This document shows positions 1 to 58,598 of a stretch of DNA of 64,000 nt, one piece after another; position 1 is the first letter of the stretch, and the number at the start of each line of letters is the position of its first letter. The DNA lies in IMG/VR virus record IMGVR_UViG_3300050645_000186, positions 1 to 64,000 of that record; one strand, written 5' to 3'. The stretch comes from a virus (Duplodnaviria > Caudoviricetes). Made by a program: the position numbers and the translations under genes. A model generated the notes under the pieces. The model saw only the letters and a program-made list of their open reading frames with translations, was not told the origin of the DNA and made no database searches.

Positions 1-498
1 TCATAGCGTTTTCAGAAATTTGCTGTTTGGCATATTCACTAACCGTAGCTGTATGCCCTGCGCAAACAATGATCGCGCTTTTATTTGGACGATTTCGGGA
101 AATGTCCCAAGTTCCATGGCAATTTGTTTGTCTGTATATCCATAGGACGCCAATTGTATGAATTCGTCATCGGGTACCAATAGCCCGGCCGCAAATCGGT
201 TTGCCTCAAGCTCCGTTTTCGCGGTGGAATGAAACCCTTCATCCCGTAAAGGCGAAGCCATGGCCATACGGAGATGCAGCCTGTCGTGCCCCAATTCGTG
301 TGCGCAGACCAACCGCTTCATTTGATCATCCAGAGCAGCGTTGATCACAATCATTCGCACGCGGTTCATGTAGCAATAATAGCCCTTGAGTTTCCTTAGA
401 TTATCATACTCAACGCATATACCCAGCATCTCCGCAATAATAAAAGGATCGCCGGTTCCATACTTTCTGACCAGAGCATTGCAGAGCCGGTCGATCAT
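1..498 (-). CDS. ImmA/IrrE-family metallopeptidase (anti-repressor)
   Basis: HELGH zincin motif and ELEANRFAAGLL; directly downstream of an XRE gene; ATG at 498 has a GGAGG RBS. Confidence 0.9.
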   Translation of the reverse strand: MIDRLCNALVRKYGTGDPFIIAEMLGICVEYDNLRKLKGYYCYMNRVRMIVINAALDDQMKRLVCAHELGHDRLHLRMAMASPLRDEGFHSTAKTELEANRFAAGLLVPDDEFIQLASYGYTDKQIAMELGTFPEIVQIKARSLFAQGIQLRLVNMPNSKFLKTL

Positions 499-576
499 GC
501 CTCCGTTCACACCTATCTACTCCCATATCTTTATACTTTGAGTATAACAGGCTATGTGTGCAAAAGTCCGTACAGA

Positions 577-996
577 TCATTCCGGCTTATCTTCCGTTTG
601 TCCTTTATTCCCATACTTTTCTTTGGCAATTTCCTTTGAACGCTGAAACATCCGCATGAGCGAGCCCATGAATTCCTCGCGTTCTTCGTCCGTAATGTCA
701 CCGCCCGCCAAATACGCCTGCGCGTCGCCGAGTATCTTTTGCGCCTGCTGCGCGCCGCGCCCGCCGTACTGCTCGGCCATATCCATAAAGAAAAGCTCCT
801 GATCATTGAGCAACTGGTCGATCGAAACATTGTAAAGCTCGGAAAGCTTTATCAGCACGTCGCGTTTTTTCGGTATCACGTTGTTCTCTTCATAGCTTTG
901 ATAGGCCCGCGTGGAGATGCCGATGTACTCCGCTACCTTGCGTTGAGGATACTTAGCATTTTCTCTTAATATCCTGACCTTCTCGCCGAATGTCAT
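577..996 (-). CDS. XRE-family HTH prophage repressor
   Basis: N-terminal HTH (LRENAKYPQRKVAEYIGISTRAYQSYE); divergent from the early operon. Confidence 0.9.
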   Translation of the reverse strand: MTFGEKVRILRENAKYPQRKVAEYIGISTRAYQSYEENNVIPKKRDVLIKLSELYNVSIDQLLNDQELFFMDMAEQYGGRGAQQAQKILGDAQAYLAGGDITDEEREEFMGSLMRMFQRSKEIAKEKYGNKGQTEDKPE

Positions 997-1022
997 TTAT
1001 TGGAACCTCCGTCTAATATTTG

Positions 1023-1096
1023 CGAAGTAAACTTCGTGAATTATCATTGACTCCATGTCGTGGCGTTTGTATAATAGCATACGAAGTGGACTTCGT
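1023..1096 (+). promoter_or_regulatory. Rightward sigma70 promoter flanked by two palindromic operators
   Basis: TTGACT (1047-1052), 17-nt spacer, TATAAT (1070-1075); palindromes CGAAGT-AA-ACTTCG (1023-1036) and ACGAAGT-GG-ACTTCGT (1081-1096). Confidence 0.85.
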
Positions 1097-1138
1097 CAAC
1101 AAAACTTATGCAGGATAAAATGTCGGGGGTAAAGGGTT

Positions 1139-3610: not shown

Positions 3611-3895
3611 ATGAGACTTTTTGAAACCATCCGCATGCTTTCAGGCAATCCGACGCTCCGGGAGAATGTCGCGGATGCTTCGAACGCCGCGCTCAAAGCT
3701 GTAACCTGCGCGCTTTCCATTATGGAGGAAGCCTGCCTGACCATCGCATCTGAGCTGAAACGCATACGCGACGGCTTGCCCCGTTTCCGTGAAGATTCGC
3801 CGGAGGAGGCGCTCGCGCTTGCGTTTGAAAAGCTGGCTTGTGCGAAAAAAACCATTCAGTGCCTTGTCGAAGGGGGCGGTTTCCATGTCGAGTGA
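3611..3895 (+). CDS. Hypothetical protein (absent from element 2)
   Basis: AGGAGG RBS; overlaps the start of the next gene. Confidence 0.6.
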   Translation: MRLFETIRMLSGNPTLRENVADASNAALKAVTCALSIMEEACLTIASELKRIRDGLPRFREDSPEEALALAFEKLACAKKTIQCLVEGGGFHVE

Positions 3896-4301
3896 AAGGC
3901 TGTTCGAACTGGCCGACCGGCTGCGTGAGCTGCGCGAGGCCAAGGTGTATGCCGAGCAGGCGCTCAAAGAGGTCAACGACCAGCTCGACGAGGTGGACTA
4001 CCGCCTATCCGAGCTTATGGCCGAGACCGAAACGCAGAACTTCACGCGCGGCGGCACCATGTTCTACCTGATTTCCAAGACCCGCGCGTCTGCTACGGCC
4101 GACCGTAAGGATGAGCTGTTCGCAGCGCTGCGCGGCGAGGGCTACGGCGAGCTTGTCACGGAAACGGTCAACGCCAATTCCCTGTCCGCGTTCGTAAAGG
4201 AGCAGATCACCGAGAACGGCGACGCGCTGCCCGATTGGCTCCGGGGCTTGGTGAATGTATTTGAAAAAACCACCGTCGGCGTCCGAAAGGCCGTCAAATA
4301 A
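3885..4301 (+). CDS. Conserved phage replication-module protein (gp33-like)
   Basis: Coiled-coil N-terminus and ETVNANSLSAFVKE; homolog at 48795-49205. Confidence 0.75.
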   Translation: MSSERLFELADRLRELREAKVYAEQALKEVNDQLDEVDYRLSELMAETETQNFTRGGTMFYLISKTRASATADRKDELFAALRGEGYGELVTETVNANSLSAFVKEQITENGDALPDWLRGLVNVFEKTTVGVRKAVK

Positions 4302-4328
4302 AGAATTTTGAAGATGAGGGATTGAAGA

Positions 4329-4952
4329 ATGGCTACAAAAACAAAAGCAACGAAGCGTCTAGAGGCGCAGGTCAACAACGATGCGGAGGCCGCTATCCTT
4401 ATGCCGTATGTCGTGGAATGCGAGATCACCGGCACGTCGCCCATCCTTTTTCACCGTTGGAGCTGTGAGGATGTGGAGGCGAAGGCCACCGCTGCAAAGA
4501 ACAGCAAAGCCAAGAAAACCGACAACATTGAGGCATATCTGTATCGCAACGATAAGCGCGAGATTTGTATTCCCACCGAGTATTTCCGACAGAGCATCAT
4601 CACAGCAGCGAAATGCCGCCAAGACCCCCGCAGCCCGCGTAAAAGTGCCTGTGACCTGTTCAAGGCCAGCGTGCTTTCGATCAGCGATTTGGCTACGACC
4701 GGCTGCGGCGAACCGGACTATATCGACAAGCGCCGCGTTTGCGTGCAGCGTGCGGGGATCACCCGTCTGCGCCCGGCACTCGATGCGGGATGGAAGGTCA
4801 GGGTGCTTTTGCAGGTGCAAACGCCGGAGTACATTGCGCCGAGCTTCCTGCTTGACGTGATGGCGGATGCCGGGAGGCTGGTCGGCGTCGGGGATTTCCG
4901 CCCAACATACGGGCGTTTTCAGGTCAGCAATTTTTCGCTGCTGGCTGACTAA
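4329..4952 (+). CDS. Orphan RAMP/Cas7-like RNA-binding protein (candidate Vipr-like effector)
   Basis: RAMP-like motif order: ITGTSPILFH first strand, ICIPTEYFRQSI helix, RRVCVQRAGITRLRP hairpin, and C-terminal Gly-rich loop AGRLVGVGDFRPTYGRF; adjacent to GGY-NN arrays. The fold is inferred, not computed. Confidence 0.7.
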   Translation: MATKTKATKRLEAQVNNDAEAAILMPYVVECEITGTSPILFHRWSCEDVEAKATAAKNSKAKKTDNIEAYLYRNDKREICIPTEYFRQSIITAAKCRQDPRSPRKSACDLFKASVLSISDLATTGCGEPDYIDKRRVCVQRAGITRLRPALDAGWKVRVLLQVQTPEYIAPSFLLDVMADAGRLVGVGDFRPTYGRFQVSNFSLLAD

Positions 4953-4962
4953 TACACCAATA

Positions 4963-5054
4963 CCGGGCATGGTACGGCTCGGCCAGGCAAGGTTGGGTCA
5001 GGCAGGGTAAGCCCATCGTTTCTGGGGCAGTTTGTCGTCAAAACTGCCACCCCA
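4963..5054 (+). ncRNA. Putative guide RNA unit 1 (array 1 plus 3' hairpin)
   Basis: Non-coding array followed by CGTTT and hairpin GGCAGTTT (5026-5033), loop GTCGTCA, AAACTGCC (5041-5048). Confidence 0.6.
4966..5010 (+). repeat. GGY-NN pentamer array 1 (9 units)
   Basis: GGC-AT GGT-AC GGC-TC GGC-CA GGC-AA GGT-TG GGT-CA GGC-AG GGT-AA. Confidence 0.95.
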
Positions 5055-5058
5055 TTCC

Positions 5059-5143
5059 CCGGGCGTGGCAGGGCAAGGCAAGGTCTGGCTCGGTCAGGCA
5101 AGGCAGGGCAAGGCGTTTAGGCGGTTATTACGATAAAACCGCC
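5059..5143 (+). ncRNA. Putative guide RNA unit 2 (array 2 plus 3' hairpin)
   Basis: Array ending in CGTTT, then hairpin GGCGGTT (5120-5126) / AACCGCC (5137-5143). Confidence 0.6.
5062..5116 (+). repeat. GGY-NN pentamer array 2 (11 units)
   Basis: GGC-GT GGC-AG GGC-AA GGC-AA GGT-CT GGC-TC GGT-CA GGC-AA GGC-AG GGC-AA GGC-GT. Confidence 0.95.
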
Positions 5144-5170
5144 ATCTATTCAAAAACGGAGGAAAACACA

Positions 5171-5923
5171 ATGTCTAAAAAAGATACGGATATTCAGGTG
5201 GTCGGCAACGCATTTGCGCATCTGTCTGAATTCAATATGAGCGCGGCCATGGCCGAGGAGCTTGACGGCCTCAACGTCAATTTTGAGCGCATCAAGATAC
5301 CGGCAGGCGGCAGCACCGTGTTCGAGCTGCCCGGCGAGGAAACCGACGAACCGGATATGACCAAGGAGTTCAGCGGCGTCATTCTGTGGCACCATCCGCT
5401 CTTCGCCTTCTATACGGACAAATACACCGGGGCGAACAACCCGCCCGTCTGCGGCAGCTTCGATGGCATGACCGGCGAGGGCATGCCCGGCGGTTCCTGC
5501 GCCAAATGCCCTTACAACCAGTTTGGCTCCGGCGAAAACGGCTCCAAGGCGTGCAAAAACCGCCGCCGCATCTATGTGCTGCGCGAGGGCGAGATTTTCC
5601 CGCTGCTGCTGTCCCTGCCCACCGGCAGCCTTAAGGAGTTCACGCGCTACATCAAGCGCCTGCTCAGCAAAGGCAAGAAATCCAACGCAATCGTTACCCG
5701 TTTTTCGCTCAAAAAGGCGATGAGCGCAAGCGGCATCGCGTATTCGCAGGCGCAATTCAGCATCGACCGCGATCTGAATGTCGAGGAGTACGCGCTGATC
5801 GCTACGCTGGCTGAGCAGGTCAAGGCACACAGCAGGCGCGTCGCCTTCGAGGTGGACGAGCCTGTGGAGAATATCCCGGCGATCGACCCGGAAACCGGCG
5901 AGATCATCGAACCTTTACGGTAA
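5171..5923 (+). CDS. Conserved phage replication protein (putative ssDNA-binding/annealing)
   Basis: Sits before the DNA polymerase; CxxC (CAKC) and acidic tail (IDPETGEIIEPL); homolog at 49273-50022. Confidence 0.6.
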   Translation: MSKKDTDIQVVGNAFAHLSEFNMSAAMAEELDGLNVNFERIKIPAGGSTVFELPGEETDEPDMTKEFSGVILWHHPLFAFYTDKYTGANNPPVCGSFDGMTGEGMPGGSCAKCPYNQFGSGENGSKACKNRRRIYVLREGEIFPLLLSLPTGSLKEFTRYIKRLLSKGKKSNAIVTRFSLKKAMSASGIAYSQAQFSIDRDLNVEEYALIATLAEQVKAHSRRVAFEVDEPVENIPAIDPETGEIIEPLR

Positions 5924-5992
5924 TCAACCCGCCCGGTGCGAGTGGGAGGCATACCCTCCCTCTCGGCCCTCGGGCAGACAGGAGCAGACAGT

Positions 5993-7915
5993 ATGGCATA
6001 CAGGTGCGTGACAGTACCAAAAGAAATACACGAATACCTTCATGGCGCGGCCATCGTTGCGTTCGACTTTGAAACCGCACCGCTGGAAACGTATCGCAGC
6101 GAAGAAAAGGCTGCGCTGGATGCGCACAAATCTGTAATCGTGGGCGTGAGCCTATCGGTTGCCGAAGACAGTGCCATCTATGTCCCACTCCGGCACCGGG
6201 TTGGCGAGAATGCCGACTCGCCGGAAGCGATCATGGCGACCTTGCGTTCGGAGCTGTTTGAAAATCCCGATATCCTCAAGATCGCCCACAACCTCGCGTT
6301 CGAGGCGATGTTCCTTTATGCGCTGGGCATCGTGGTGCAGCCGCCCTGTTACGACACGATCGCGGCGGTGCGCATGACGCTCAAGAATCACACGCAGTTT
6401 CGGGCGCTGTCGGACAGCGGCCTGAAAACCTTGGTGCCCGAGCTGTTCGGCGTGGAGCTGCCCGGCTTTGAAGAAGTGACGGCGGGCCGGTTCTTTGACG
6501 AGCTTGATCCGCAGGACACGGAAACGGTGCGCTATGCCTGCGCCGACAGCGATTACGCGCTGCGGCTGTATCACCTACTCAACGGCTGGTTTGACCGTTA
6601 CCTCCCCAAGCACCGCTTCATCGTGGAAGAAATCGAGTCCCCCACGGCCGTGTATTGCGGCCTCATGAAGTACAACGGCTTGCTGGCGGATCAGGCGCGG
6701 ATGCTCGAAAAGCAGGCGGAGGCCGAGCACAGGCTCCAACAGCTCCGGGAGGAGATCGCCTTCCTGATCGGCGACGTGAACATCGGCGCGAACGCGGGTA
6801 CATCCGCGTTCAAGAGCTATCTGTTCAACGACCTCAGTCTGCCGGTGTTGAAAACCACCGCCAAGTACCAGGAGGCGGCGGACGATGAGGTCATGATCCT
6901 GCTCGCCGAGTGGTGCCGGGACAACCGGCCGGAGCTTGTGCCTTTGTTCGAGCTGGTGCAGGAGTACCGGCGCTGGGGCAAGCTCAAGTCCACGTATCTG
7001 GACGGGTATCTGCAGCATATCAACGCGGCCACCGGCAGGATACACCCCGACCTCATGCCGCTGGGCACGGAAACGGGCCGCTTCGCCAGCCGCAAGCCCA
7101 ACCTGCAAAACATGCCGCGTGCGGACGGCGACGTGATCGGCGTCAGGAGCTTCATAACCGCGCCTGCTGGCAGCGTTCTCCTCTCGCTGGACTTCTCGCA
7201 GATCGAGCTGCGCGTCGGCGCGTATTATTGCCGGGATGAAAAGATGCTGGAGACCTACCGCACGGGCGGCGACATTCATGCGCAAACCACGGCGGTCATC
7301 TACGGCATCCCGTTCGCGCAGGCGGCGGATAAGCACGCCGAGCACTACAAGGAGCGGCGCGTAATCGCAAAAAACTGCAACTTCGGTGTGTTCTTCGGGC
7401 TGTTCGCCAAGGGCCTGCAGCGCACGCTCAAGTTCAAGGCGGGCCTGAATACGCCGCTTTCGGAGTGTGAGGGGATCATCGACAATCTGAAAGCGGGTTA
7501 CCCGCGCCTGGCATCTTGGCAGGAGGAGGTCAAGCAGCGGGCGGAGTTCCGCAAATACACGCAGACGTACTTAGGCCGCCGCCGTTACCTGCCGGGCATA
7601 TCCTCATCTGATTGGGGCAAGAAGTCCTTCGCGCAAAGGTGCGCATTGAACACCCCGATCCAAGGCACCGCCGCCGACATCCTCAAGCTGGCGCTCGGGC
7701 GCATCCTCACCGGCCTGCCGGAGCGCATGTGGCTCAAGCCGCTGTTGCAGGTTCACGACGAGCTGGTCTTTGAACTGCCGGACGGCAAAGTATCCGAGGC
7801 GGTTGCTTTCATAAAAACATGCATGGAGGCGCACCCCTTTCCCGAATTTGACGTGCCGATCGTCGCCGAGGCGGCCTGCGGGCCTACCTTCGGCAACATG
7901 GCAGAAATGGAGTAA
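5993..7915 (+). CDS. Family A DNA polymerase (3'-5' exonuclease plus polymerase)
   Basis: ExoI FDFET; motif A LDFSQIELR; motif B AKNCNFG; motif C QVHDEL. Confidence 0.95.
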   Translation: MAYRCVTVPKEIHEYLHGAAIVAFDFETAPLETYRSEEKAALDAHKSVIVGVSLSVAEDSAIYVPLRHRVGENADSPEAIMATLRSELFENPDILKIAHNLAFEAMFLYALGIVVQPPCYDTIAAVRMTLKNHTQFRALSDSGLKTLVPELFGVELPGFEEVTAGRFFDELDPQDTETVRYACADSDYALRLYHLLNGWFDRYLPKHRFIVEEIESPTAVYCGLMKYNGLLADQARMLEKQAEAEHRLQQLREEIAFLIGDVNIGANAGTSAFKSYLFNDLSLPVLKTTAKYQEAADDEVMILLAEWCRDNRPELVPLFELVQEYRRWGKLKSTYLDGYLQHINAATGRIHPDLMPLGTETGRFASRKPNLQNMPRADGDVIGVRSFITAPAGSVLLSLDFSQIELRVGAYYCRDEKMLETYRTGGDIHAQTTAVIYGIPFAQAADKHAEHYKERRVIAKNCNFGVFFGLFAKGLQRTLKFKAGLNTPLSECEGIIDNLKAGYPRLASWQEEVKQRAEFRKYTQTYLGRRRYLPGISSSDWGKKSFAQRCALNTPIQGTAADILKLALGRILTGLPERMWLKPLLQVHDELVFELPDGKVSEAVAFIKTCMEAHPFPEFDVPIVAEAACGPTFGNMAEME

Positions 7916-35449: not shown

Positions 35450-35506
35450 ATTAACTTGCTATGTGTGAAACACAGAGGTAACATGCCTACTGCAAGGAGG
35501 GATCGT

Positions 35507-36841
35507 ATGGCAAGAAATATACGGATAATAGGGCCTTTATCGCCCGCAGCGCCCAAGAAAAAGCGCGTGGCCGCATATGCGCGGGTATCCAGCGGCAAGG
35601 ACGCAATGCTCCACTCGCTCTCGGCGCAGGTCAGCTACTACAGCGCCTATATCCAACGTCAGCCGGGCTGGGAATACGCCGGTGTGTACGCGGATGAGGC
35701 GCTCACCGGCACCAAGGATGACCGCCCGGAGTTCCAGCGGCTGCTTGCCGACTGCCGGGCCGGGCAAATCGATATGGTAGTTACAAAGTCCATATCAAGG
35801 CTGGCAAGGAACACGGTAACTATGCTGGAGGCGGTGCGCGAACTCAGGGCGCTGAACATCGATGTGTTCTTCGAAAAAGAGAATATTCACAGTCTGAGCG
35901 GGGATGGTGAGCTGATGCTTACCATCCTCGCTTCTTTTGCGCAGGAGGAAAGCCGGTCGGTCAGCGAAAACTGCAAATGGCGCATCCGCAGTCGTTTTCG
36001 GGACGGCGAGCTGGTGGGCCTGAGTTATATGTACGGCTATCGCATATGCAAAGGCGTGATCAAGGTTGATTTAGTCGAAGCGGCGGTCGTGAGGCGGGTT
36101 TTCCGGGATTGCATCGAAGGCATCGGCGTGGAGACGATCGCAAAGCGGCTCAACGAGCTGGGCATATCGCAGCGGCGCGGTGGCGAGTGGTCAGGGGCGC
36201 GCGTGCTGCACCTGCTGCACAATGAAAAATATACCGGCAACGCCCTGTTGCAAAAAAGCTACGTCGCCGACCACCTGACCAAGAAGGAACGCCCCAATAA
36301 AGGCGTACTCCCCATGTACTTTGCGGAGGGTACGCATCCCGCCATCATCGACCGGGGCACATTCGATCGTGCGCAACGGCGGCTTGAAGCCAACAGGAAA
36401 AGCAACAACATTTCCAAAGATGCGCCTGCCAGATACCCCTTTTCCGGCATCATCCAATGTGATAATTGCGGGCAGAAATTCAAGCGCGTCGTGTGCCATG
36501 GCAGGCCCTACTGGCAATGCACGACGTATCTTCGTAACGGCAAGGCCGCCTGCCACACCAAACAGATACCCGAGCCTATTCTGCTGTCGCTTGCGGCACA
36601 GGCGCTTGGGCTTTCCGCTTTTGATGAGGCGGCTTTCAACAGCCAAATCCAAGAGATGCGCATACCCGCGCACGATCGGGTGATTTTTGTGTTTCACGAC
36701 GGCCATACGGCGGAGTGCGTATGGCAGGACAATTCGCGCCGGGATAGCTGGTGTGAGGAGAAAAAGCAGCAGGCGCGCCAGCGTCAGCTTGAATATATGG
36801 AAAAGGAGAACAGCCAATGCAACCAAACGCCGCAAGAGTAA
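35507..36841 (+). CDS. Large serine recombinase 1
   Basis: AAYARVSS catalytic Ser; TKSISRLARN; LAQEES-like FAQEES; Zn ribbon CDNC...C...C. Confidence 0.93.
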   Translation: MARNIRIIGPLSPAAPKKKRVAAYARVSSGKDAMLHSLSAQVSYYSAYIQRQPGWEYAGVYADEALTGTKDDRPEFQRLLADCRAGQIDMVVTKSISRLARNTVTMLEAVRELRALNIDVFFEKENIHSLSGDGELMLTILASFAQEESRSVSENCKWRIRSRFRDGELVGLSYMYGYRICKGVIKVDLVEAAVVRRVFRDCIEGIGVETIAKRLNELGISQRRGGEWSGARVLHLLHNEKYTGNALLQKSYVADHLTKKERPNKGVLPMYFAEGTHPAIIDRGTFDRAQRRLEANRKSNNISKDAPARYPFSGIIQCDNCGQKFKRVVCHGRPYWQCTTYLRNGKAACHTKQIPEPILLSLAAQALGLSAFDEAAFNSQIQEMRIPAHDRVIFVFHDGHTAECVWQDNSRRDSWCEEKKQQARQRQLEYMEKENSQCNQTPQE

Positions 36842-37034
36842 CCGTAATCCCTGCGTATACGCGGCCTTCTAATACAGGGCCTGTGGGCCTTGCCTCAAAA
36901 AAGCGCGTGGCGGCATATGCCCGTGTATCCACCGATAGCGAGGAGCAGCTTACCAGTTATGAGGCGCAGGTAGATTACTACACCCGCTATATCAAGGAAA
37001 AGGACGAGTGGTCATTCGTTGAAGTCTATACGGA
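36817..37034 (+). pseudogene. Large serine recombinase 2, truncated N-terminal fragment
   Basis: AAYARVSTDSEEQLTSYEAQ...FVEVYT then unrelated sequence where DEGISG is expected. Confidence 0.88.
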
Positions 37035-37125
37035 AATAATAGTTCCCTATATGATACGGCTTCGTTTCCGGGATTTCGTTAAAGAATGTAAAAACCTTTT
37101 GATTTACAGACTTTCTCACACCGAG

Positions 37126-37309: not shown

Positions 37310-37663
37310 CTATTCGCAAAGAGAATAAATTTTCGGCATACCGCCAGAATCTATCACCTTGCCAATTTCAATCAGCCCAAAAACAATCAACGCTCTAACA
37401 TAAATGTAAGGAGTATCCGTATCGGGGTATAACACTTTCACATACGGTGCAAGATCATCAAACGAGCCGACACTGTAATTGCTACCATTGCTGTCGGAGA
37501 CAGCATATGTGGCAGGGTCAAATTTCCCATAGAAATTTTTAACTGCATATGCAAAAGCAAATTTTGCAGCAGATGTTCCGTGGTCAAATTTCCCCGTTGC
37601 GACCAGTTTATCAGCCACCTCGTTAGCGGCTTTTGATAAGCGGAAATTTGTTATATCGTTCAT
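37310..37663 (-). CDS. Small protein after the ATPase (DndE-like position and size)
   Basis: Last gene of the minus-strand operon; GGAGG RBS; family guessed from context only. Confidence 0.5.
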   Translation of the reverse strand: MNDITNFRLSKAANEVADKLVATGKFDHGTSAAKFAFAYAVKNFYGKFDPATYAVSDSNGSNYSVGSFDDLAPYVKVLYPDTDTPYIYVRALIVFGLIEIGKVIDSGGMPKIYSLCE

Positions 37664-37678
37664 ATCTGTCACCTCCAG

Positions 37679-39673
37679 TTATTGCAGTTCTATTGCTGTA
37701 TGGAAAGAACCATACTTTCTCAGGCGATATTCTTTTTTGAGTGTGCTTCCTAAAACCTGTCTGGCGGTCTGCCCATCAATCTCATCAGTGTACGCCAAAA
37801 GAATGATCTGATCGGACATTAATGGCAGTGCCTTTGTTATGTTTTTCTTATGGGTTGGATCGAGACGTCCAAAAGGAGAATCCATTATAATAGGTCCGCT
37901 TAAGGGGGCGTTTTTGTGTAAAGCGCCAATCAACGACAGTGCCACAATATGCTCAAACCCGGCAGAACGGAATGGTATTATTTCACCGGAACGATGTTGT
38001 ATGGAGAGGCCATAGTTGTCATTAATTTTTAACGCTGTATAGTCAGGATCGCTGCTAATGTTGCAGAAAAGCTCTGTAGCATCACGTTCAACTTCCGCTT
38101 TTAGTTTGTCACGATATGCAGCGATGCCGTCGTTAAATAACTGATGGAGTGCTGCACAGATTTCAACCTTTTTTACTGCAAGATTTAAATCCGCATCAGA
38201 AGTACCTGCTTTCCGAACTTTTTCTTCAAGGCTTGCTAAAGCAATGTCGGCTTCTTTTATTTTATCCTTAGTTGCTTGAATACCTTCCTTTAGATTTTCA
38301 ATCTTTGAATAGCACTTTGCCAAGTTTTGTGCATTCTCTTTTGCGACAGCGGTGAGGTCACTTATATTTCCGTAGCGGCTAATCTCATCTCGCAAATCTT
38401 TGAACTGACCTTTTGCGTCATCAATCTGCACTAAGAGATCAGCCAGCTGATCCTCATAAACCTTGAGAACTTGGGCGTCTGTAGCACTCTGCATACTTTC
38501 CAAAGATGCCTGTCGGATTTGAAGAGTTTTCATGCGCCCGATTTCTTCGGTGGACAGTCCGCCAAATTCTCCTGGCTCTTCTTCAAGTCGCTTTTTAAGT
38601 GCAATTACGTGAGCTTCATCTACATCCTGGTTACAGCATTCACAATGATGCGTTTCTACGATACGTTGAATATATGTCATAAGTCGAGCAACAGACTCAT
38701 GCGTATTGTGCTTTTGCTGGAGAGTATATAGTTCAGACTTAACCTGAGATAGAATTTCAGAGGTTTTCTTGCCAATCACATATCTCCAGACATCTTTTGT
38801 CGCAACAACAATTGACTGTAAAAGGCCATCACGTGTAGCTTCTTTTGCAGCAATATCGCTCTCTAAATGCTCCATGTTCTGGATTAATGCTCTGAGATGC
38901 TCGTTCTGTTTTCCTTCGTCCTCAAGTTTTGCCCTGAGATTTTGCGCCTCCTCATATGCTGCTTGAAGCCGCACCAGTTCTTTTGTTTGCTCATCCTTCT
39001 TTGCCGTTTCCGATTCAATCTGTGCGGCATACTTTTCTGTCTGCTTATTTGCCTGAGCTGCTTTTGTCTGTTCCTTGCGGTATTCGTCAAGGACAAAGGC
39101 AGTATCATTAGCGGCGCTTGTCAAAATGGGGACTCCTAAAATTGATTCAATAGATTTCTTGATTTTTTCGCCGGCAGAAGTTTCATCTTTCACGAGTTCC
39201 TCGTATTCCTGAAGCAATTCACCATCGAATAGGAAAAATCGAGAAACATCCTCTGGCATTATTAATGCCAGTTCATGTTCTTTATTTGGAGCAAAATGCC
39301 CATCAACCTTAAGAAAAACATCCTGAACATAGTCATCGTTCTTGGAAGGAACTGTTACACCAGAACGAACACTATATTGACGAGTAAGTTCATATTTTTT
39401 TCCATCGTGGAGCATTTTCAATACAACCTTAAAATCGTATTTACCCGCTTTCATTCCTTCTCGGTTCACCAATTTTAGAATATCTTCTACCGTCTCATGG
39501 CGGTATTGGAATCTGCCAAACAAGGCATAACGGAAGAGGTTCAGAAGCGTGGTTTTCCCATGTCCATTGTCTCCCCAAATAAGGGTAACACCATCCCCAT
39601 CACCGAAGTCAATTGTCTGCTCACCTTCATAAGGGCCAAAATTATTGATGGTTATACTCGTAAACTTCAACAT
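37679..39673 (-). CDS. SMC/Rad50-like ABC ATPase (DndD-like)
   Basis: Walker A GDNGHGKTT; FFLFDGE; long coiled coil with CECC hinge; signature SAG; Walker B IMDSPFGRLD. Confidence 0.88.
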   Translation of the reverse strand: MLKFTSITINNFGPYEGEQTIDFGDGDGVTLIWGDNGHGKTTLLNLFRYALFGRFQYRHETVEDILKLVNREGMKAGKYDFKVVLKMLHDGKKYELTRQYSVRSGVTVPSKNDDYVQDVFLKVDGHFAPNKEHELALIMPEDVSRFFLFDGELLQEYEELVKDETSAGEKIKKSIESILGVPILTSAANDTAFVLDEYRKEQTKAAQANKQTEKYAAQIESETAKKDEQTKELVRLQAAYEEAQNLRAKLEDEGKQNEHLRALIQNMEHLESDIAAKEATRDGLLQSIVVATKDVWRYVIGKKTSEILSQVKSELYTLQQKHNTHESVARLMTYIQRIVETHHCECCNQDVDEAHVIALKKRLEEEPGEFGGLSTEEIGRMKTLQIRQASLESMQSATDAQVLKVYEDQLADLLVQIDDAKGQFKDLRDEISRYGNISDLTAVAKENAQNLAKCYSKIENLKEGIQATKDKIKEADIALASLEEKVRKAGTSDADLNLAVKKVEICAALHQLFNDGIAAYRDKLKAEVERDATELFCNISSDPDYTALKINDNYGLSIQHRSGEIIPFRSAGFEHIVALSLIGALHKNAPLSGPIIMDSPFGRLDPTHKKNITKALPLMSDQIILLAYTDEIDGQTARQVLGSTLKKEYRLRKYGSFHTAIELQ

Positions 39674-39691
39674 AACAAACAACCCTCCTTA

Positions 39692-39883
39692 TTAAATGGT
39701 TACCGTCTTCAGAAAATCATCTATGACTTTCTGCGTATCATGTCTTGCCTTTGTCCTATCATCCTGAGACGAAAATTCCGCATTTACGATATCTTGAATC
39801 AATGATGCAGGTATTTTAGGCTGCTGCTTGGCTCTGATTTTTTCCAATACGGAAATCAGTTCATTGATTTCGATGTTAGTCAT
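39692..39883 (-). CDS. Small helical protein
   Basis: Between helicase and ATPase; GAGGAGG RBS. Confidence 0.65.
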   Translation of the reverse strand: MTNIEINELISVLEKIRAKQQPKIPASLIQDIVNAEFSSQDDRTKARHDTQKVIDDFLKTVTI

Positions 39884-42008
39884 TGTCATCATCCTCCTCA
39901 ATTCCGGTGTTTTGTAAACTGTTGTAGTCGATCTGGTAATCAACGGCTATATTTTTCAAATCGGTAACACAGGCAGGGTTTTCTGCGCCTAAACCAAACT
40001 GAATCGCTCTTGATAATTCACCGATAATAATCGACATAGACTTTGGCGTTTCTTCAGATTCGACCACGGGAACCGTAATCGCATCATAAAGATGTGCGAA
40101 GAGCTTACCTGGTGAATTTCTTAGAATCCTACCTCTGCGCTGAATGAATTCTCTTGGATTCTGTGAAGACGCAAGAATCAAAGCGTGTGTGGTAGAAGGA
40201 ATATCAATACCTTCATCCAAGCACTTAATCGAAACCAAGACGCCGCCGTTCTTAGAAAAGTATCGGAGCGTCTCGTCTCGATCACCTTCCATATCTGCAT
40301 AGTATTCAAATGCATCAAAACCAGCGTCAATCGCACCGTTCAATACACTCTTTAACTGTGTGATATTGTCGCAATAGATAATCCAACTCTGGCCTACCAC
40401 ATATTCTCTAAGCAAGAGATTGATGGCCAAGGGAACTTTACCAGATGCATTCTTGACAATACGCGCTCTGTTAATCAACAATTGCTTCAAGCGTGTGTTG
40501 GAGGTAATACTCGTATCTGAATTTCCATTAGCTTTCATACGAGCCATAAGCTGACTTATCTGTTTTGTAATATCGTTCCATTCTTCCTGCTCATTTTGTG
40601 TGAGGGTAATGGTGAGTGGGTTATAAAAATACTTTGTTAAAACGCCGCTTTTTATTGCGTCATCCAATGTATAGGGTGGTGGTACGAGACCGCCAAAATA
40701 ATCAAAGAGCGCAGACGTTCCTTCGGGATCTCCATATCTGCGTGGCGTGGCAGATAAGCCCAACCTTGCACCTGCATCTATATTTAAGGCGTTACGTCTC
40801 CGTGGGCTTCCCAATCTATGTACTTCGTCAGCCACGACAAACAGATGATTACCATGCGATACATTTTTTACAAAATCATCTGAGCAGGCTGTATCCATAG
40901 TTGCAAGAATAATGCGATGAGTTGAACCTCCATCACTTGTCCAAGATGCCAAAGTTCCGGGCTTTTTCCACTCGTTATTGTTATCCCCGCAAAGAAGATA
41001 GTATATTTTATCTTCGAGCAAGGTTTCCCTCAATTCTCGATCCCATTGTTTTAATAGGTCTCTTGATGGGACTAAAATCAGTACGACTTCATTTCTCTTA
41101 AAAGCATCATGGATTGCACACATGGCAGTGAAAGTTTTTCCGCTGCCTGTAGCATGTTCAAAAATGCCTCGGCGATTATTCTTTACCCATGCTTCAAGGG
41201 CATTTACTTGATGCGGACGGGGTGTGCGGCTGCCAACATGATTACTTGGTTTCCACTTTTTTGCCTTGTTTTCTTCTACATGGATTTCATCCAGTAATTC
41301 GTGCCATTTTACTCCCTCCGCTTTAGTTCGTAATATTTCTTTAGAGGCACTCGGGAATTGATACACAATAATTCCTGAAACGGATTCTGACCATAGCTTT
41401 TCAAAAAATACTGATGCGTCATCAACTCGTTCGGCATCGCGGCTATCGAGCCAATCCGGAAATACATCAATAGACTCCATGTTTCCATCGGAAGATAGTC
41501 CTCTGTACGTTTCATTCATTGAACCACGGAAGCCCACTTTATTACCATCGGAATCCGTGAAAATACCGACTTTGTCGTGAAACAGTCTCCTTGCATTTGG
41601 TGATTCTTTGCCAGTTGGAACAGCGATTTTTACATCAATAATGCCTTTTGAAATCATATATGCAAGTAGCTTTGCTGGAGCAGATAAAAAAGGATCATCA
41701 AATAAGGTCTGCACTTCTTTTGCAAGCGACTCCGCGAGCAATTCATCATTTTTCGCAGAGTAGCCATTAGCTAACGCAGTGGCATCTTCATCAGATACAT
41801 ACGGTGAACATATCAAGCGCATCTTACCATTGTTATCGATAAATTCCCGTAAAGCATCCCAGGCAATAATGTAGATTGTGCTTCCAAAATACCCGGAGAT
41901 TCTATCGTAACGGCTTGAGTGCCTCATGCATGGAAGATAAAACATATCAGCTATGTCATGCTCGGCCTTATTATAAGAAGTAAGATATGTTTGTTCCTTA
42001 AGACTCAT
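39876..42008 (-). CDS. PLD-like nuclease fused to SF2 helicase (Dnd-associated restriction-enzyme-like)
   Basis: FHDKVG...GSMNET HxK motif; ATGSGKT; DEVH; SATP; QRRGRILR. Confidence 0.85.
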   Translation of the reverse strand: MSLKEQTYLTSYNKAEHDIADMFYLPCMRHSSRYDRISGYFGSTIYIIAWDALREFIDNNGKMRLICSPYVSDEDATALANGYSAKNDELLAESLAKEVQTLFDDPFLSAPAKLLAYMISKGIIDVKIAVPTGKESPNARRLFHDKVGIFTDSDGNKVGFRGSMNETYRGLSSDGNMESIDVFPDWLDSRDAERVDDASVFFEKLWSESVSGIIVYQFPSASKEILRTKAEGVKWHELLDEIHVEENKAKKWKPSNHVGSRTPRPHQVNALEAWVKNNRRGIFEHATGSGKTFTAMCAIHDAFKRNEVVLILVPSRDLLKQWDRELRETLLEDKIYYLLCGDNNNEWKKPGTLASWTSDGGSTHRIILATMDTACSDDFVKNVSHGNHLFVVADEVHRLGSPRRRNALNIDAGARLGLSATPRRYGDPEGTSALFDYFGGLVPPPYTLDDAIKSGVLTKYFYNPLTITLTQNEQEEWNDITKQISQLMARMKANGNSDTSITSNTRLKQLLINRARIVKNASGKVPLAINLLLREYVVGQSWIIYCDNITQLKSVLNGAIDAGFDAFEYYADMEGDRDETLRYFSKNGGVLVSIKCLDEGIDIPSTTHALILASSQNPREFIQRRGRILRNSPGKLFAHLYDAITVPVVESEETPKSMSIIIGELSRAIQFGLGAENPACVTDLKNIAVDYQIDYNSLQNTGIEEDDDND

Positions 42009-42531
42009 ATGTACCTCCAAGTAGTTCTTCGTGCATGATATCCATACGACGAATTATGGCATCGTACAAAAACTGAGGGCGAGCACATACAATACGCTCA
42101 TTATTTTTTCTCGTTGTTTCAGATACCTTTGTGCAAAGAGCTTCAACAATCACATCAGCCTTAACTTGCATATTGCAACTATATGCAAAATCAAGATGTT
42201 TTTCAGCATCCCAAAAAGCAAAAACAATATCTTCGCCGTCCCGTACTAATGCACCAATAATAGGCATGCGCCCATCAGAATAGTCAAGATGTCCACGTTC
42301 TCCATGCTTTTGACCAGGAAGGATTATTTGAATCTTATATTCGCCTAAAGCACGACCGCCAGGAGGATTTGTGCAGTTCCATAAGTAAACACGCAGACGT
42401 AAGCTTCTTGGACATAAATCCACAAGAAGAGGAAATGATGTCGTGTCACTATGCCAAGTGACATGATCATCGAGTCCCTCAATGAAAATAGTATTCAATG
42501 CTTTTTTACTAAGTCTCTTTTTCTTTGCCAT
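41998..42531 (-). CDS. Unknown protein, possibly methylase-associated X1-like domain
   Basis: RVYLWNCTNPPGGRALGEYKIQ segment resembles that family from memory; lies between the MTase and helicase genes. Confidence 0.5.
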   Translation of the reverse strand: MAKKKRLSKKALNTIFIEGLDDHVTWHSDTTSFPLLVDLCPRSLRLRVYLWNCTNPPGGRALGEYKIQIILPGQKHGERGHLDYSDGRMPIIGALVRDGEDIVFAFWDAEKHLDFAYSCNMQVKADVIVEALCTKVSETTRKNNERIVCARPQFLYDAIIRRMDIMHEELLGGTYES

Positions 42532-43378
42532 TATCATGTCCTCCTGCGATAGAGCGAAGAAGAGAAGCCGCATGTTCTACATATTCTTCTACAACATCAA
42601 ACCCAACAAAGCGCCGCCCGAGAGACAAAGCTGCATATCCTGTGGTACCACTTCCCATCCAAGGATCAACCACTAAGTCGTTTTCTGCTGTTGTAGCTTT
42701 TATATATTTTTGTGGCAGATACAACGGCTGCGTGGCTGGATGGTCATCAATTCGAGCCGATACCCCTCCGCTTATAATATTCTTTGGTAATGCGCCCAAT
42801 GGGTTTGGGGCTATTCGTTTATTTTTGCGAACGTATGTGTTGCCGTTTGAACGGGGCTTGTATTCGTAGGTTTCGTATGTTTGAACACTATGGGATTCAT
42901 AAGGCCTTCGTATTGCGTCAATATTTATTGTCCATTTAGAGGATTTTGAAAACCATAGATTCTGTTCATAAGCATCTTGGCAGGCTACCCGAAGTCCCGT
43001 GGGTACAGGATTCTCTTTTACCCAAATCTCGATATCAACACAATGCAATCCCCACGTTTCTTCCATTTCTATTGCGAGTTTTTCTATTACCAATGAACGT
43101 TTGGACGAACATTTGGATGTTGATTTCTCCCTGTTCGCTTTAACATTTATCACAATAAAGCCATCATCGCGTAGTTTTAAACAAGCTGAATCCAAAAATG
43201 GTGACATTTTTCTTATATATTCAGACGATCGCCATACTCCATATTCACGTTCTGCATTGGGATATGGAGGTGAACCATAAATGAGTTTTATGGATTTATC
43301 TGGAAGCAGAAGCATTCCTTTTGCGCCATCCATTCGTCGGACTGCGTAGTTGCTCTTATTTATCTCCTGTATTATCAT
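42509..43378 (-). CDS. Beta-class DNA methyltransferase (SPPY)
   Basis: GSPPY, HPATQP, VDPWMGSGTT. Confidence 0.92.
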   Translation of the reverse strand: MIIQEINKSNYAVRRMDGAKGMLLLPDKSIKLIYGSPPYPNAEREYGVWRSSEYIRKMSPFLDSACLKLRDDGFIVINVKANREKSTSKCSSKRSLVIEKLAIEMEETWGLHCVDIEIWVKENPVPTGLRVACQDAYEQNLWFSKSSKWTINIDAIRRPYESHSVQTYETYEYKPRSNGNTYVRKNKRIAPNPLGALPKNIISGGVSARIDDHPATQPLYLPQKYIKATTAENDLVVDPWMGSGTTGYAALSLGRRFVGFDVVEEYVEHAASLLRSIAGGHDNGKEKET

Positions 43379-44282
43379 CGGCAACCTCTTCTTGTAAATC
43401 CTTTTCATATTGCAATCTCAGAGCGGCAAGACGGCAATAATCAGAATTAGCATCAATGCCAATCCATATGCGGTTAAGTCGTTGTGCCACAGCAGCAGTG
43501 GTGCCAGAGCCTGAAAATGGATCGAGTACAACATCTCCTGCAGAACTTCCAGCAAGAATAAAAAATTCTGCCAGTTTTTCGGGGAAACGTGCAGGGTGGC
43601 CAATTCCCTCTTCTTTACATAACTTCATAAAATAATCATTACTGCTTGTGTTTGCAATTTCAATTACTGTTCCAGGGTCTGAACCACCGTTATCGGTCCA
43701 CACCTTCTCACAATCGAAATTATGTGTGCTGGGACGTGTATTGTAGTTTCGATCTCCCTTTCCTTTGCCCTGAAGATATTTTTTCATATCTTTACTGTAC
43801 GGCTTTCTGATTGGATCCATATTAAATTCCCATGTGTCACCCTTTGCCAACCAAAAGCAATATTCGTGTGATTTTTTAGTGCGACCATAACCTCCCCTAG
43901 AATATACATTTGGAGGAGTCGCAGGATTATACCATATATAGTCGCGTACAAGATGAAACCCAATTTCTTTACATAATTTCAATAAAAGCTCAAATACATA
44001 TAGGTGCTGAAAGTTATCTACAACTTTATCGCTGATATTAAGAACGAAACTGCCATCGTCCTTAAGGATCCGATGCATTTCCCTTGCTTTTGGAATAAAC
44101 CAATCAACATATTCATCAGGTGGAATCGTGCCATCTACATCGCCATAATCACGTTTATCTGCATAGGGAGGAGATGTTAGTATAAGATCAATACTCGAAT
44201 CTGGTATAGTTTGTAAAACAGTTTCACAGTCACCACATATAAATTTATCACGAAACGTGTTTAGCGTTTTTTTCTTTTTCAT
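43356..44282 (-). CDS. Beta-class DNA methyltransferase (SPPY)
   Basis: TSPPY, HPARFP, LDPFSGSGTT. Confidence 0.93.
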   Translation of the reverse strand: MKKKKTLNTFRDKFICGDCETVLQTIPDSSIDLILTSPPYADKRDYGDVDGTIPPDEYVDWFIPKAREMHRILKDDGSFVLNISDKVVDNFQHLYVFELLLKLCKEIGFHLVRDYIWYNPATPPNVYSRGGYGRTKKSHEYCFWLAKGDTWEFNMDPIRKPYSKDMKKYLQGKGKGDRNYNTRPSTHNFDCEKVWTDNGGSDPGTVIEIANTSSNDYFMKLCKEEGIGHPARFPEKLAEFFILAGSSAGDVVLDPFSGSGTTAAVAQRLNRIWIGIDANSDYCRLAALRLQYEKDLQEEVADDNTGDK

Positions 44283-49205: not shown

Positions 49206-49272
49206 CAGCGCCGATTCAATGCGTCCACGCGTGAATCGCAACTTATTTCATTTGATCAGGAGGACATAGATT

Positions 49273-56719: not shown

Positions 56720-57271
56720 TTGGCGAAGGACGGAACCAACAGAGGCGGCGCTCGTGTCGGCGCGGGCGCAAAAAAGAAGCCGTTAGCCGACAAAATCGCT
56801 GCCGGCAATCCCGGCGGCAGAACACTGACGGTCATGGAGTTTTCCTGCGCTGCAGATCTTCAGGGTCAGGCGATGCCGGAGCCGAACAAAATGCTCGAAG
56901 CAGTCCAAAAGGACGGCAAGACGCTGGTCGCCGGTGAGATTTACAAAAACACATGGACGTGGCTGAACGAACGCGGCTGCGCGGCGCTGGTCTCTCCGCA
57001 GCTTCTGGAGCGATACGCCATGAGCGTCGCCCGCTGGATTCAGTGTGAGGAAGCGGTCACTACCTACGGCTTTCTGGCAAAGCATCCTACTACGGGCAAC
57101 GCGATTCAAAGCCCGTATGTGGCGATGGGTCAGAATTACATGAACCAGACTAACCGGCTGTGGTATGAGATTTTTCAAATCGTCAAGGAAAACTGCACCG
57201 GCGAGTACAGCGGCGCAAACCCGCAGGATGACGTAATGGAGCGCTTGCTCAATGCAAGGAGGGGCAAATGA
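56720..57271 (+). CDS. terS: Terminase small subunit (P27 family)
   Basis: TTG start; homolog of 13001-13555. Confidence 0.88.
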   Translation: MAKDGTNRGGARVGAGAKKKPLADKIAAGNPGGRTLTVMEFSCAADLQGQAMPEPNKMLEAVQKDGKTLVAGEIYKNTWTWLNERGCAALVSPQLLERYAMSVARWIQCEEAVTTYGFLAKHPTTGNAIQSPYVAMGQNYMNQTNRLWYEIFQIVKENCTGEYSGANPQDDVMERLLNARRGK

Positions 57272-57272
57272 C

Positions 57273-58598
57273 GTGGATATACGAAGCCTAAAGCTGTCGG
57301 AGCTGAATCCGGCAAAATACAATCCGCGCAAAGAGCTGCGTCCCGGCGATGCGGAGTTTGAGAAGCTCAAGCGTTCCATCGAGAGCTTCGGCTATGTGGA
57401 GCTGATTGTCGTCAACGAGGCGACGGGCTTCACGGTCATTTCCGGTCATCAGCGGCTCTCCGTTTTGAAAGTACTCGGCTATGAGAGCGCGGAGTGCGTG
57501 GTGGTGAGCTTGGACGCCGCCCGCGAAAGGGCGCTCAACATCGCCATGAATAAAATTTCCGGCGAGTGGGATACGAAAAAGCTCGAAAACCTGCTCTCGG
57601 ATTTGAAAGCGGAGGATTTTGACGTTACGCTGACCGGCTTCGACACCAGTGAGATCGGGCTTATGCTCAGCGTGGATGATGAAATCGTGCAGGATATTGT
57701 GCCGGAGGTCAATGCGGATGAGCCGGCGGTATGCCAGCCCGGCGACATTTGGCAGCTTGGCCGGCATCGGCTGCTCTGCGGCAGCAGTACGGATAAAGAC
57801 GATGTTGCCAGACTGATGGACGGGCAGCACAGTAAGCTGCTCTTTACCTCGCCGCCGTACAGCGATATGCGAACCTACAACGGCGACAAGGAATTGAGCG
57901 TGGACAGCATTGCGCAATTCTTGCCTTGCTATGAACCGTTTTCCGCACTGCAAGCGGTCAATCTCGGAATCCAGCGCAAGGACGGCGAGGTCTATCCCTA
58001 TTGGAACGTTTACATCGATACGGCGAAGCAAGCCGGTCTAAAACTGCTGGCGTGGAATGTGTGGGATAAGCTCACCTGTGGAAGCGTCGGGCAGCAAAGC
58101 GCGATGATACCCATCCGGCATGAATGGATATTCTGCTTTGGCAAAGAGCCGGTGACGGTGAATCCGACGTGGCGTAAGAAGGAAGCCAGCATTTACTCCG
58201 GCGGTCGCTACAACAAAATCCGCCAGGCGGACGGCTCCTTTCGGATTGCGCGGCGCGGCAATGAAACCGGCGCATTCAAGAAGATGGAAAGCTTGCTGGA
58301 GCTGCCGGAGCAGACCAGCCTTGAGTCGGTCACGAAGCAGCTCAGTGAAAAAGGCAAGATTCGCGCCGAACACCCAGCCACCTTTCCCGTGGCGCTGCCG
58401 TCGGAATACATCGTTGCTTTTACCGATGAAAATGACATTGTGGTCGAGCCCTTTGGCGGCGCGGGTACGACGCTCATCGCCTGTGAACAGCTTGACCGCA
58501 CCTGCTACATCATGGAATTGGACGCGCACTACTGCGATGTCATCATCAAGCGCTGGGAGAATTTCACCGGTCAAACCGCCGTGAAGCAGGAGGAATGA
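57273..58598 (+). CDS. ParB-like domain fused to DNA methyltransferase (SPPY)
   Basis: YNPR, ISGHQR; FTSPPY; EPFGGAGTT; start codon uncertain. Confidence 0.9.
   Translation: MDIRSLKLSELNPAKYNPRKELRPGDAEFEKLKRSIESFGYVELIVVNEATGFTVISGHQRLSVLKVLGYESAECVVVSLDAARERALNIAMNKISGEWDTKKLENLLSDLKAEDFDVTLTGFDTSEIGLMLSVDDEIVQDIVPEVNADEPAVCQPGDIWQLGRHRLLCGSSTDKDDVARLMDGQHSKLLFTSPPYSDMRTYNGDKELSVDSIAQFLPCYEPFSALQAVNLGIQRKDGEVYPYWNVYIDTAKQAGLKLLAWNVWDKLTCGSVGQQSAMIPIRHEWIFCFGKEPVTVNPTWRKKEASIYSGGRYNKIRQADGSFRIARRGNETGAFKKMESLLELPEQTSLESVTKQLSEKGKIRAEHPATFPVALPSEYIVAFTDENDIVVEPFGGAGTTLIACEQLDRTCYIMELDAHYCDVIIKRWENFTGQTAVKQEE

Follow-up and report, generated by a model that had tools for sequence, protein, structure and literature searches.

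A minimal VIPR cassette with one protein gene and two guide RNA genes in the early operon of a Clostridia-type temperate phage

What might be encoded by a small phage gene that is followed, almost immediately, by two noncoding runs of phased pentamers? The question is raised by positions 1-64,000 (hereafter the window) of the IMG/VR provirus record IMGVR_UViG_3300050645_000186, the whole of which spans 77 kb (to 77146). A sequence-only reading of this DNA had described a 207-aa open reading frame (ORF) ending at 4952, a gap of 13 nucleotides (nt), and two phased tracts in which all 20 units begin with GG(C/T), and it had likened the locus to the recently reported VIPR systems. The ORF, the gap, and the tracts are all present as described, and the comparison proves sound: the literature exists, the protein is homologous to the solved Vipr of phage SUSP1, and its homologues carry arrays. 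We conclude that the locus very probably belongs to the VIPR family, with positions ~4302-5170 forming a minimal cassette in which a single vipr gene is accompanied by two vrRNA genes and by no accessory gene. It is inserted into the early operon of an Oscillospiraceae-type temperate phage, where it has a replication-module gene on either side.

VIPR (Viral Interference Programmable Repeat) is the subject of three 2026 preprints (bioRxiv 10.64898/2026.04.26.720920, 10.64898/2026.04.26.720927, and 10.64898/2026.10.15.759431; together, the VIPR bioRxiv preprints). In these accounts, Vipr is a ~20-kDa protein that is regarded as an ancestral RAMP with a single RRM, and its guide, the vrRNA, comprises 9-16 GGY/NN repeats (Y, pyrimidine; NN, two variable bases) and a structured 3' tail. 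One protomer is bound per repeat, with the GGY sequestered (VIPR bioRxiv preprints), and the NN pairs with double-stranded DNA, with one target base skipped per unit (10.64898/2026.04.26.720920). The outcome is the transcriptional silencing of competing phages or satellites, and seven types are recognized, among which accessory vap genes and array architectures vary (VIPR bioRxiv preprints). The sequence-only reading had modeled a protein polymerizing on the RNA and displaying the NN pairs to silence a target without a nuclease; silencing is indeed what the published systems achieve, and their mechanism is more specific than that model in that it entails the recognition of double-stranded DNA, one skipped base per unit, and silencing at the level of transcription.

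The first line of evidence comes from the protein. A single-sequence phmmer search of all PDB sequences returned a sole match, 36pp, the "SUSP1 Vipr protein" (E 5.4e-8), and a profile of 62 family sequences recovers the same entry with an E of 1.2e-17 over residues 5-190 of 202. The residues of SUSP1 Vipr that hold the GGY, known from cryo-electron microscopy and mutagenesis (10.64898/2026.04.26.720927), are H17, R138, D177, W178, and R179, and these align to H42, R148, D189, F190, and R191 of the window protein. In the alignment of 62 family sequences, conservation of R148, D189, and R191 is 90% or higher, and the close clade shows no variation at H42 and F190. The AlphaFold2 model (pLDDT 93.2, pTM 0.84) is a Cas7/Csm3-type RAMP fold, in keeping with the RNA-binding fold that had been proposed from motif order. 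The structural comparison called for at that time gives type VII Cas7 and Csm3 as the best Foldseek matches to the product of 4329-4952 (E about 5e-7), and VIA-align places Cmr4, Csm3, and Cas7 at Z 12.1-11.2 over 133-155 aligned residues (top Z 12.1 over 153). In the model, the thumb beta-hairpin falls at approximately residues 131-151 and the G-loop, GVGDFRPTYGRF, at residues 186-197; this Gly-rich loop and the motifs ITGTSPILFH and IPTEYFRQSI, which had been quoted for the protein, are all readable straight from the translated DNA.

No Pfam, NCBIfam, or PADLOC model matches the protein, and its match in PHROGs is phrog_4652, of unknown function. The protein is recorded on a host contig of 382 kb. 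The family is very large: a 90%-clustered collection yields 5344 homologous proteins at E<1e-3, clustering at 50% gives 1136 representatives, and 388 loci with relatives were confirmed in IMG/VR. Within so large a family, the earlier suggestion that the locus may represent a new subfamily could not be upheld, as no such status is demonstrated. Among 50,697 deposited phage genomes, a single one, Phage DSL-LC04 (OR003939), has a match over most of the protein (58% identical), and ~100 Felix O1-like phages match it over the C-terminal 75 residues only. The DSL-LC04 homologue (L226; OR003939.1, 22429-23046) is annotated as a "helix-turn-helix transcriptional regulator"; it is preceded by an unannotated gap of 320 nt and followed by an overlapping 147-aa ORF that is a probable vap.

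The second line of evidence is the repeat architecture. The 13-nt spacer (4953-4965) leads into the vrRNA1 tract, whose units are, in order, GGCAT GGTAC GGCTC GGCCA GGCAA GGTTG GGTCA GGCAG GGTAA, giving the NN series AT AC TC CA AA TG CA AG AA. The units of vrRNA2 are GGCGT GGCAG GGCAA GGCAA GGTCT GGCTC GGTCA GGCAA GGCAG GGCAA GGCGT, with the NN series GT AG AA AA CT TC CA AA AG AA GT; the last of them coincides in part with GGCGTTT, the conserved sequence at which the tail begins, and may be part of that tail instead of the guide. GG(C/T) opens every unit of both tracts (20/20), and their lengths of 9 and 11 units are within the published 9-16 range. Outside the two tracts, perfect GGYNN runs on both strands of the whole window do not exceed 3 units, and the longest run in 200 shuffles of the 77-kb record is of 3-5 units, versus the 9 and 11 observed. 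Tandem Repeats Finder is silent on the tracts because the variable NN depresses the match percentage.

Third, each run ends in a hairpin, as had been remarked, and these fold at 5024-5051 and at 5120-5126/5137-5143. The former has 10 bp and one bulge (-14 kcal/mol, z -2.4) and typifies an internal-type tail, in which a CGTTT lead-in precedes a bulged 10-bp hairpin and CCCCA follows it. Across 8 homologous sequences of this tail, all 10 of the 10 pairs are 100% paired and 3 of them show compensatory changes, a covariation score that was reached by 0 of 500 shuffles. The vrRNA2 tail is of a terminal type: it is without a U-run, and the next gene follows at once with its ribosome-binding site and start codon. 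Terminal-type tails with other stems are also seen in L001, L223, L224, and L021, the final tail of each array being a variant hairpin that abuts the ribosome-binding site of the gene behind it. Rfam has no family at the gathering score in the window, and positions 4000-6000 give one sub-threshold chance match.

The closest relatives, with Vipr proteins 71-79% identical to that of the window, are L001 (an Oscillospiraceae metagenome-assembled genome), L223, and L224. They keep the GGY scaffold and the tail, and their NN strings are unrelated to those of the window; NN usage is likewise broad across 211 arrays. A fixed, non-guide role for the first unit (GGCRT) was considered and rejected, for this holds in the small subclade of the window only and shows no enrichment across the 211 arrays. 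Some IMG/VR relatives (L022, L079, and L091) have uninterrupted GGYNN runs of 37-60 units, compared with the published 9-16 per vrRNA. These may be the "staggered/overlapping" arrays of the paper or several guides without recognizable tails.

The fourth line of evidence is the association of arrays with the gene. In a survey of 80 IMG/VR homologue loci, in which an array was defined as at least 5 units, a same-strand GGYNN array adjoins vipr in 76, which settles favorably the neighborhood check that had been proposed for homologues. Over these loci, same-strand arrays number 296 near vipr and 12 at a distance from it, and the opposite strand has 11 anywhere. The arrays start directly after the vipr stop codon in 49/79 loci, as they do in the window; in ~10/79, arrays lie upstream, and the downstream side has a Lys-rich ORF of 114-146 aa that is translationally coupled and likely a vap. 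Relatives carry from 1 to 13 tracts, and the cassette takes other positions elsewhere, such as upstream of the helicase in L004 and directly after the polymerase in L225. The 80 loci share no conserved family of neighbor genes, which points to a self-contained mobile cassette; the largest apparent "conserved neighbor" cluster, of antisense ORFs in 27 loci, is an artifact of translated repeat tracts.

The coordinates of the locus and of its flanks are collected in Table 1.

Table 1. Features of the VIPR cassette, its surroundings, and the corresponding empty site (positions as in the record)
Feature	Position	Strand	Description
Lysogeny switch	577..1121	.	XRE-family repressor 577-996 (-); ImmA/IrrE peptidase 1-510 (-) behind
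DUF7307 (Pam3 gp33-like) replication-module gene	3885..4301	+	Upstream flank; Pfam PF23984, E 3e-46; not part of VIPR
vipr gene	4329..4952	+	207 aa; stop codon 4950-4952; single-RRM RAMP protein
vrRNA1 repeat tract	4966..5010	+	9 perfectly phased GGYNN units
vrRNA1 3' tail	5011..5061	+	Lead-in CGTTTCTGG; hairpin 5024-5051 (GGGGCAGTTT / AAACTGCC-A-CC); then CCCCATT
vrRNA2 repeat tract	5062..5116	+	11 perfectly phased GGYNN units; begins 109 nt past vipr stop
vrRNA2 terminal-type tail	5117..5150	+	Stem 5120-5126/5137-5143, 7 bp (GGCGGTT / AACCGCC), loop ATTACGATAA
Pam3 gp34-like protein, 250 aa	5171..5923	+	Downstream flank; phrog_23155; core replication-module gene
Empty site	49206..49272	+	~68-nt spacer between DUF7307-like and gp34-like genes of prophage B

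How far does the locus resemble the systems already studied? The type II VIPR of Escherichia phage SUSP1 and of a Pseudomonas fulva prophage has, like the window, a Vipr of ~200 aa that is homologous by sequence, the GGY-contact residues, and vrRNAs of 9-16 GGYNN units with a structured 3' tail in a small same-strand array beside vipr. Both are located in a phage or prophage, show no self-targeting, lack a Cas1 or Cas2 match and a CRISPR-like repeat array, and have no nuclease gene in the cassette, the protein content of which in the window is one gene. On the other hand, tblastn aligns the window protein to SUSP1 Vipr with ~39% identity over the C-terminal 75 aa only, and the window lacks a vap1-like accessory gene. 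Its internal tail is a simple bulged hairpin with the conserved CGTTT lead-in, whereas that of SUSP1 is a pseudoknot; both of its guides are downstream of vipr, with none upstream; and its host lineage lies in the Clostridia (Oscillospiraceae-like) of anaerobic digesters and sludge. Much closer are members of the family in uncultured phages (L001, which is JAVBQB010000004; L020-L098 of IMG/VR; and DSL-LC04), which have 52-79% identical Vipr proteins and the tail hairpin in common with the window. In L001 and L224, even the synteny is identical, running SNF2, DUF7307, vipr, arrays, gp34-like, PolA, and primase. Unlike the window, these members often have a leader hairpin before the first tract, and the NN of their guides are entirely different. 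The locus is a genuine and ordinary new instance of the already published VIPR.

The likeness to class 1 CRISPR-Cas systems (type III or type VII) is one of fold only. Csm3, Cmr4, type VII Cas7, and the Cas7-11 domains share with Vipr the RRM core, the thumb hairpin, and the G-loop (fold Z 10-12), and Cas7-family backbones are similarly built of one subunit per fixed RNA step, with bases flipped out at regular intervals. However, sequence identity between Vipr and Cas7-family RAMPs is 7-14%, and the Vipr step is of 5 nt with 3 bases sequestered, in contrast to 6 nt with 1 base flipped in the Cas7 family. The cassette has no repeat-spacer array, no Cas6, Cas5, Cas10, or Cas11 partners, and no adaptation genes, and a VIPR guide is a fixed gene whereas that of class 1 CRISPR is acquired. 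The entire 77-kb record is without a Cas1 or Cas2 match and without a CRISPR-like direct-repeat array or family, which extends to the whole record the absence that had been reported for the window, and we therefore reject an identity as a class 1 CRISPR-Cas system.

The setting of the cassette is that of a prophage early operon, as had been surmised: the ImmA/XRE module with divergent sigma-70-like promoters at 1020-1121 opens a + strand operon that contains vipr. The order of this operon is a small protein, a sigma-70 region-4-like protein, an SNF2 helicase, DUF7307 (gene boundaries taken from the identical phage contig L018), vipr, the two guides, the gp34-like protein, DNA polymerase A, DUF7768, and primase. 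There is no accessory vap gene at the locus, both flanks being replication-module genes. This does not exclude membership in VIPR because stand-alone vipr genes are noted in the paper. The gp34-like gene was considered as a dedicated vap and rejected, as in prophage B (described below) and in L004 it comes directly after DUF7307 and vipr is absent from the junction. At 1402-1487, just behind the first small early gene and ahead of the sigma-70 region-4-like gene (1492-1881), stand two strong tandem terminator-like hairpins of 15 bp each with T-runs, an arrangement that suggests antitermination control of the early operon with vipr.

Rated 100% complete by CheckV, the record consists, as assembled, of two related prophages in tandem, A (1-37000) and B (45000 onward), which are collinear over most of their length with 65-73% nucleotide identity. 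When the proteins of prophage A were searched by tblastn against 37-77 kb, a second set of SNF2, DUF7307, gp34-like, PolA, DUF7768, and primase emerged in prophage B from ~45 kb, with proteins 43-63% identical. The record has one copy of vipr, in prophage A; prophage B is without vipr and without tracts. Accordingly, the DUF7307/gp34-like junction measures ~870 nt in prophage A versus ~68 nt in prophage B. The vipr gene and its guides are an insert-like, self-contained mobile accessory cassette.

A large serine recombinase of 461 aa with Resolvase, Recombinase, and Zn-ribbon domains is encoded at 35456-36841, and a short resolvase-like fragment comes after it at 36907-37044. Beyond these, a 28-nt imperfect direct repeat has copies at 37501 and 37567, 66 nt apart, and this region (37501-37594) may be an attachment or junction site that ends prophage A. 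The interval between the prophages contains a minus-strand block (37679-43408), which has the look of a restriction/defense-type island or of prophage B cargo; its products are an AAA_23/SMC-like ATPase at 37679-39682, a ResIII/SNF2-type helicase at 39876-42020, and an N6/N4 DNA methyltransferase at 42509-43408. Prophage B has two adjacent genes for ParB_N-N6/N4 methyltransferase fusions at 57252-59836, and prophage A has a ParB-methyltransferase after the small terminase; these genes probably serve in anti-restriction DNA modification.

Does the cassette work as the published systems do? We consider it likely, by homology to them, that the system works and that it silences a rival element in the published manner. 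The guides are most likely cut from the early-operon transcript, since there is no U-run and no promoter-like site between ~1300 and 6000. By homology to the SUSP1 and P. fulva systems, we infer how the locus would be transcribed and its RNAs matured, how the filament would form, that the skip rule applies in this clade, and that a competing element would be the one silenced. An early transcript would arise from promoters near 1050-1120 and be processed into two RNAs of ~95 nt, each comprising a tract and its 3' hairpin tail. Vipr protomers would then polymerize along each RNA, one per GGYNN unit, with each pair of protomers holding one GGY through H42, R148, D189, F190, and R191 and leaving the NN displayed. 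The resulting filament would recognize double-stranded DNA with one skipped base after each NN pair, which predicts footprints of 26 nt and 32 nt. On its target, such a filament would act as a roadblock, so that transcription of the competing mobile element would be silenced with no nuclease. Among the public runs that contain the stretch, none is listed as RNA; two that are tentatively marked as such are probably DNA and cover parts of it as short contigs, and the one true metatranscriptome gave no match to it, which speaks neither for nor against expression.

Predicted targets were built by the 1-nt-skip rule of 10.64898/2026.04.26.720920, with a criterion of at least 80% NN match; they are ATnACnTCnCAnAAnTGnCAnAGnAA for vrRNA1 and GTnAGnAAnAAnCTnTCnCAnAAnAGnAAnGT for vrRNA2. 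In IMG/VR, the exact vrRNA2 pattern has 0 matches. Two exact matches to vrRNA1 (L016 and L017) have their skipped base at the first or second codon position and were rejected because a pattern of 18 fixed bases should match ~1-2 times by chance. A search there with vrRNA2 units 1-9 and 3-11 gives 6 matches, the best of which (21/22) is on a contig of 35% GC and out of wobble phase, and these were also set aside. Metagenome contigs similarly yield 0 matches to the exact vrRNA2 pattern, and the 115 matches to its inner 9 units are scattered, mostly in AT-rich DNA, and show no convergence on a gene family; 23/115 are in wobble phase, which is no excess, and none fits both flanking units. Against 93 vipr-bearing loci, taken as rival VIPR systems, the best scores of the guides equal those of shuffled guides.

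Some observations weigh against an active system of the published kind. The exact and near-exact 1-nt-skip matches to a natural target are all at chance level, scattered, and mostly out of wobble phase. W178 of SUSP1 is F190 here, a substitution that keeps the aromatic character, and there is no promoter-like site directly upstream of the cassette. Moreover, L001, L223, and L224 have a leader copy of the hairpin after the vipr stop codon and ahead of the first tract, and the window is without it; vrRNA1 could therefore mature differently, or poorly, at its 5' end. One reading of such facts is that the locus is a decaying or inactive VIPR remnant, with an inherited gene and tracts, unmatched guides, a lost processing hairpin, and no current function. 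The missing leader hairpin and the failure to find a target in any collection searched would both fit this reading, which we nonetheless regard as unlikely. The ORF is intact and its RNA-contacting residues are conserved, both tails fold, and the 20 units are all perfect GGY, cleaner than in many relatives, where internal GGY degeneracy is common. Contigs from two other public runs (SRR22741940 and DRR776523) have an identical Vipr and an identical spacer from vipr to the next gene, tracts and tails included, and the 3800-6000 stretch is present in DNA runs from anaerobic-digester, sludge, and sediment studies, nine of which have at least half of the sampled words. Furthermore, the failure to find a target is to be expected if the rival elements are unsampled.

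A different role for an active system would be one directed at the host, with the guides aimed at a chromosomal gene such that silencing by the prophage reprograms its host. This finds its only lead among 401 Oscillospirales genomes in a 20/22 match to vrRNA2, in-frame and wobble-phased, in a small cupin-domain gene beside a TrpR/YerC-like regulator, with a 19/22 match in a second genome that also falls in such a gene. Chance is the likelier explanation of this match because matches overall are no higher than in the control (9 with up to 3 mismatches versus 16 for the reversed pattern), and we hold such a role to be very unlikely. It is extremely unlikely that Vipr and its vrRNAs form a self-regulatory riboregulator that targets its own genome or prophage B in the timing of early and late expression or in silencing a neighbor. 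The cassette does sit in the early operon beside the lysogeny switch, with a related prophage 10 kb away in the record, but the 77-kb record, prophage B included, has no self-target: the best matches, 13/18 (72%) and 15/22 (68%), are under 80%, and ~five 13/18 matches are expected by chance. No improvement comes from skips of 0, 2, or 3; over skips of 0-3, the sole hits at or above 80% are the tracts themselves at skip 3. The published systems are likewise without a self-target (VIPR bioRxiv preprints). Finally, that the tracts act as DNA, either as replication-origin iterons or as a G-quadruplex, with the RAMP-like protein as an unrelated neighbor, is also exceedingly improbable: the site does lie inside a replication module (SNF2, DUF7307, the cassette, gp34-like, PolA, and primase) and GG doublets 3 nt apart could in principle form two-tetrad quadruplexes, yet the arrays follow vipr on its own strand in 76/80 loci with unrelated neighbors, prophage B has the same replication genes with neither vipr nor tracts, and the period of 5, the pyrimidine-constrained third position, and the free NN are those of the protein-RNA contacts of SUSP1.

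The value of the locus, as an instance of VIPR, is confirmatory and descriptive, and the understanding of VIPR is unchanged by it. It belongs to a large metagenomic family, with more than 5000 homologues, for which Pfam, NCBIfam, PADLOC, and Rfam have as yet no protein or RNA model. It contributes a clean and minimal VIPR, of one protein and two guides in ~870 bp, from a Clostridia-type digester phage, a source remote from the Enterobacteria and Pseudomonas in which systems have been studied so far. Further, with a filled site and an empty site in two tandem related prophages on one contig, it shows the VIPR cassette as a mobile insert.

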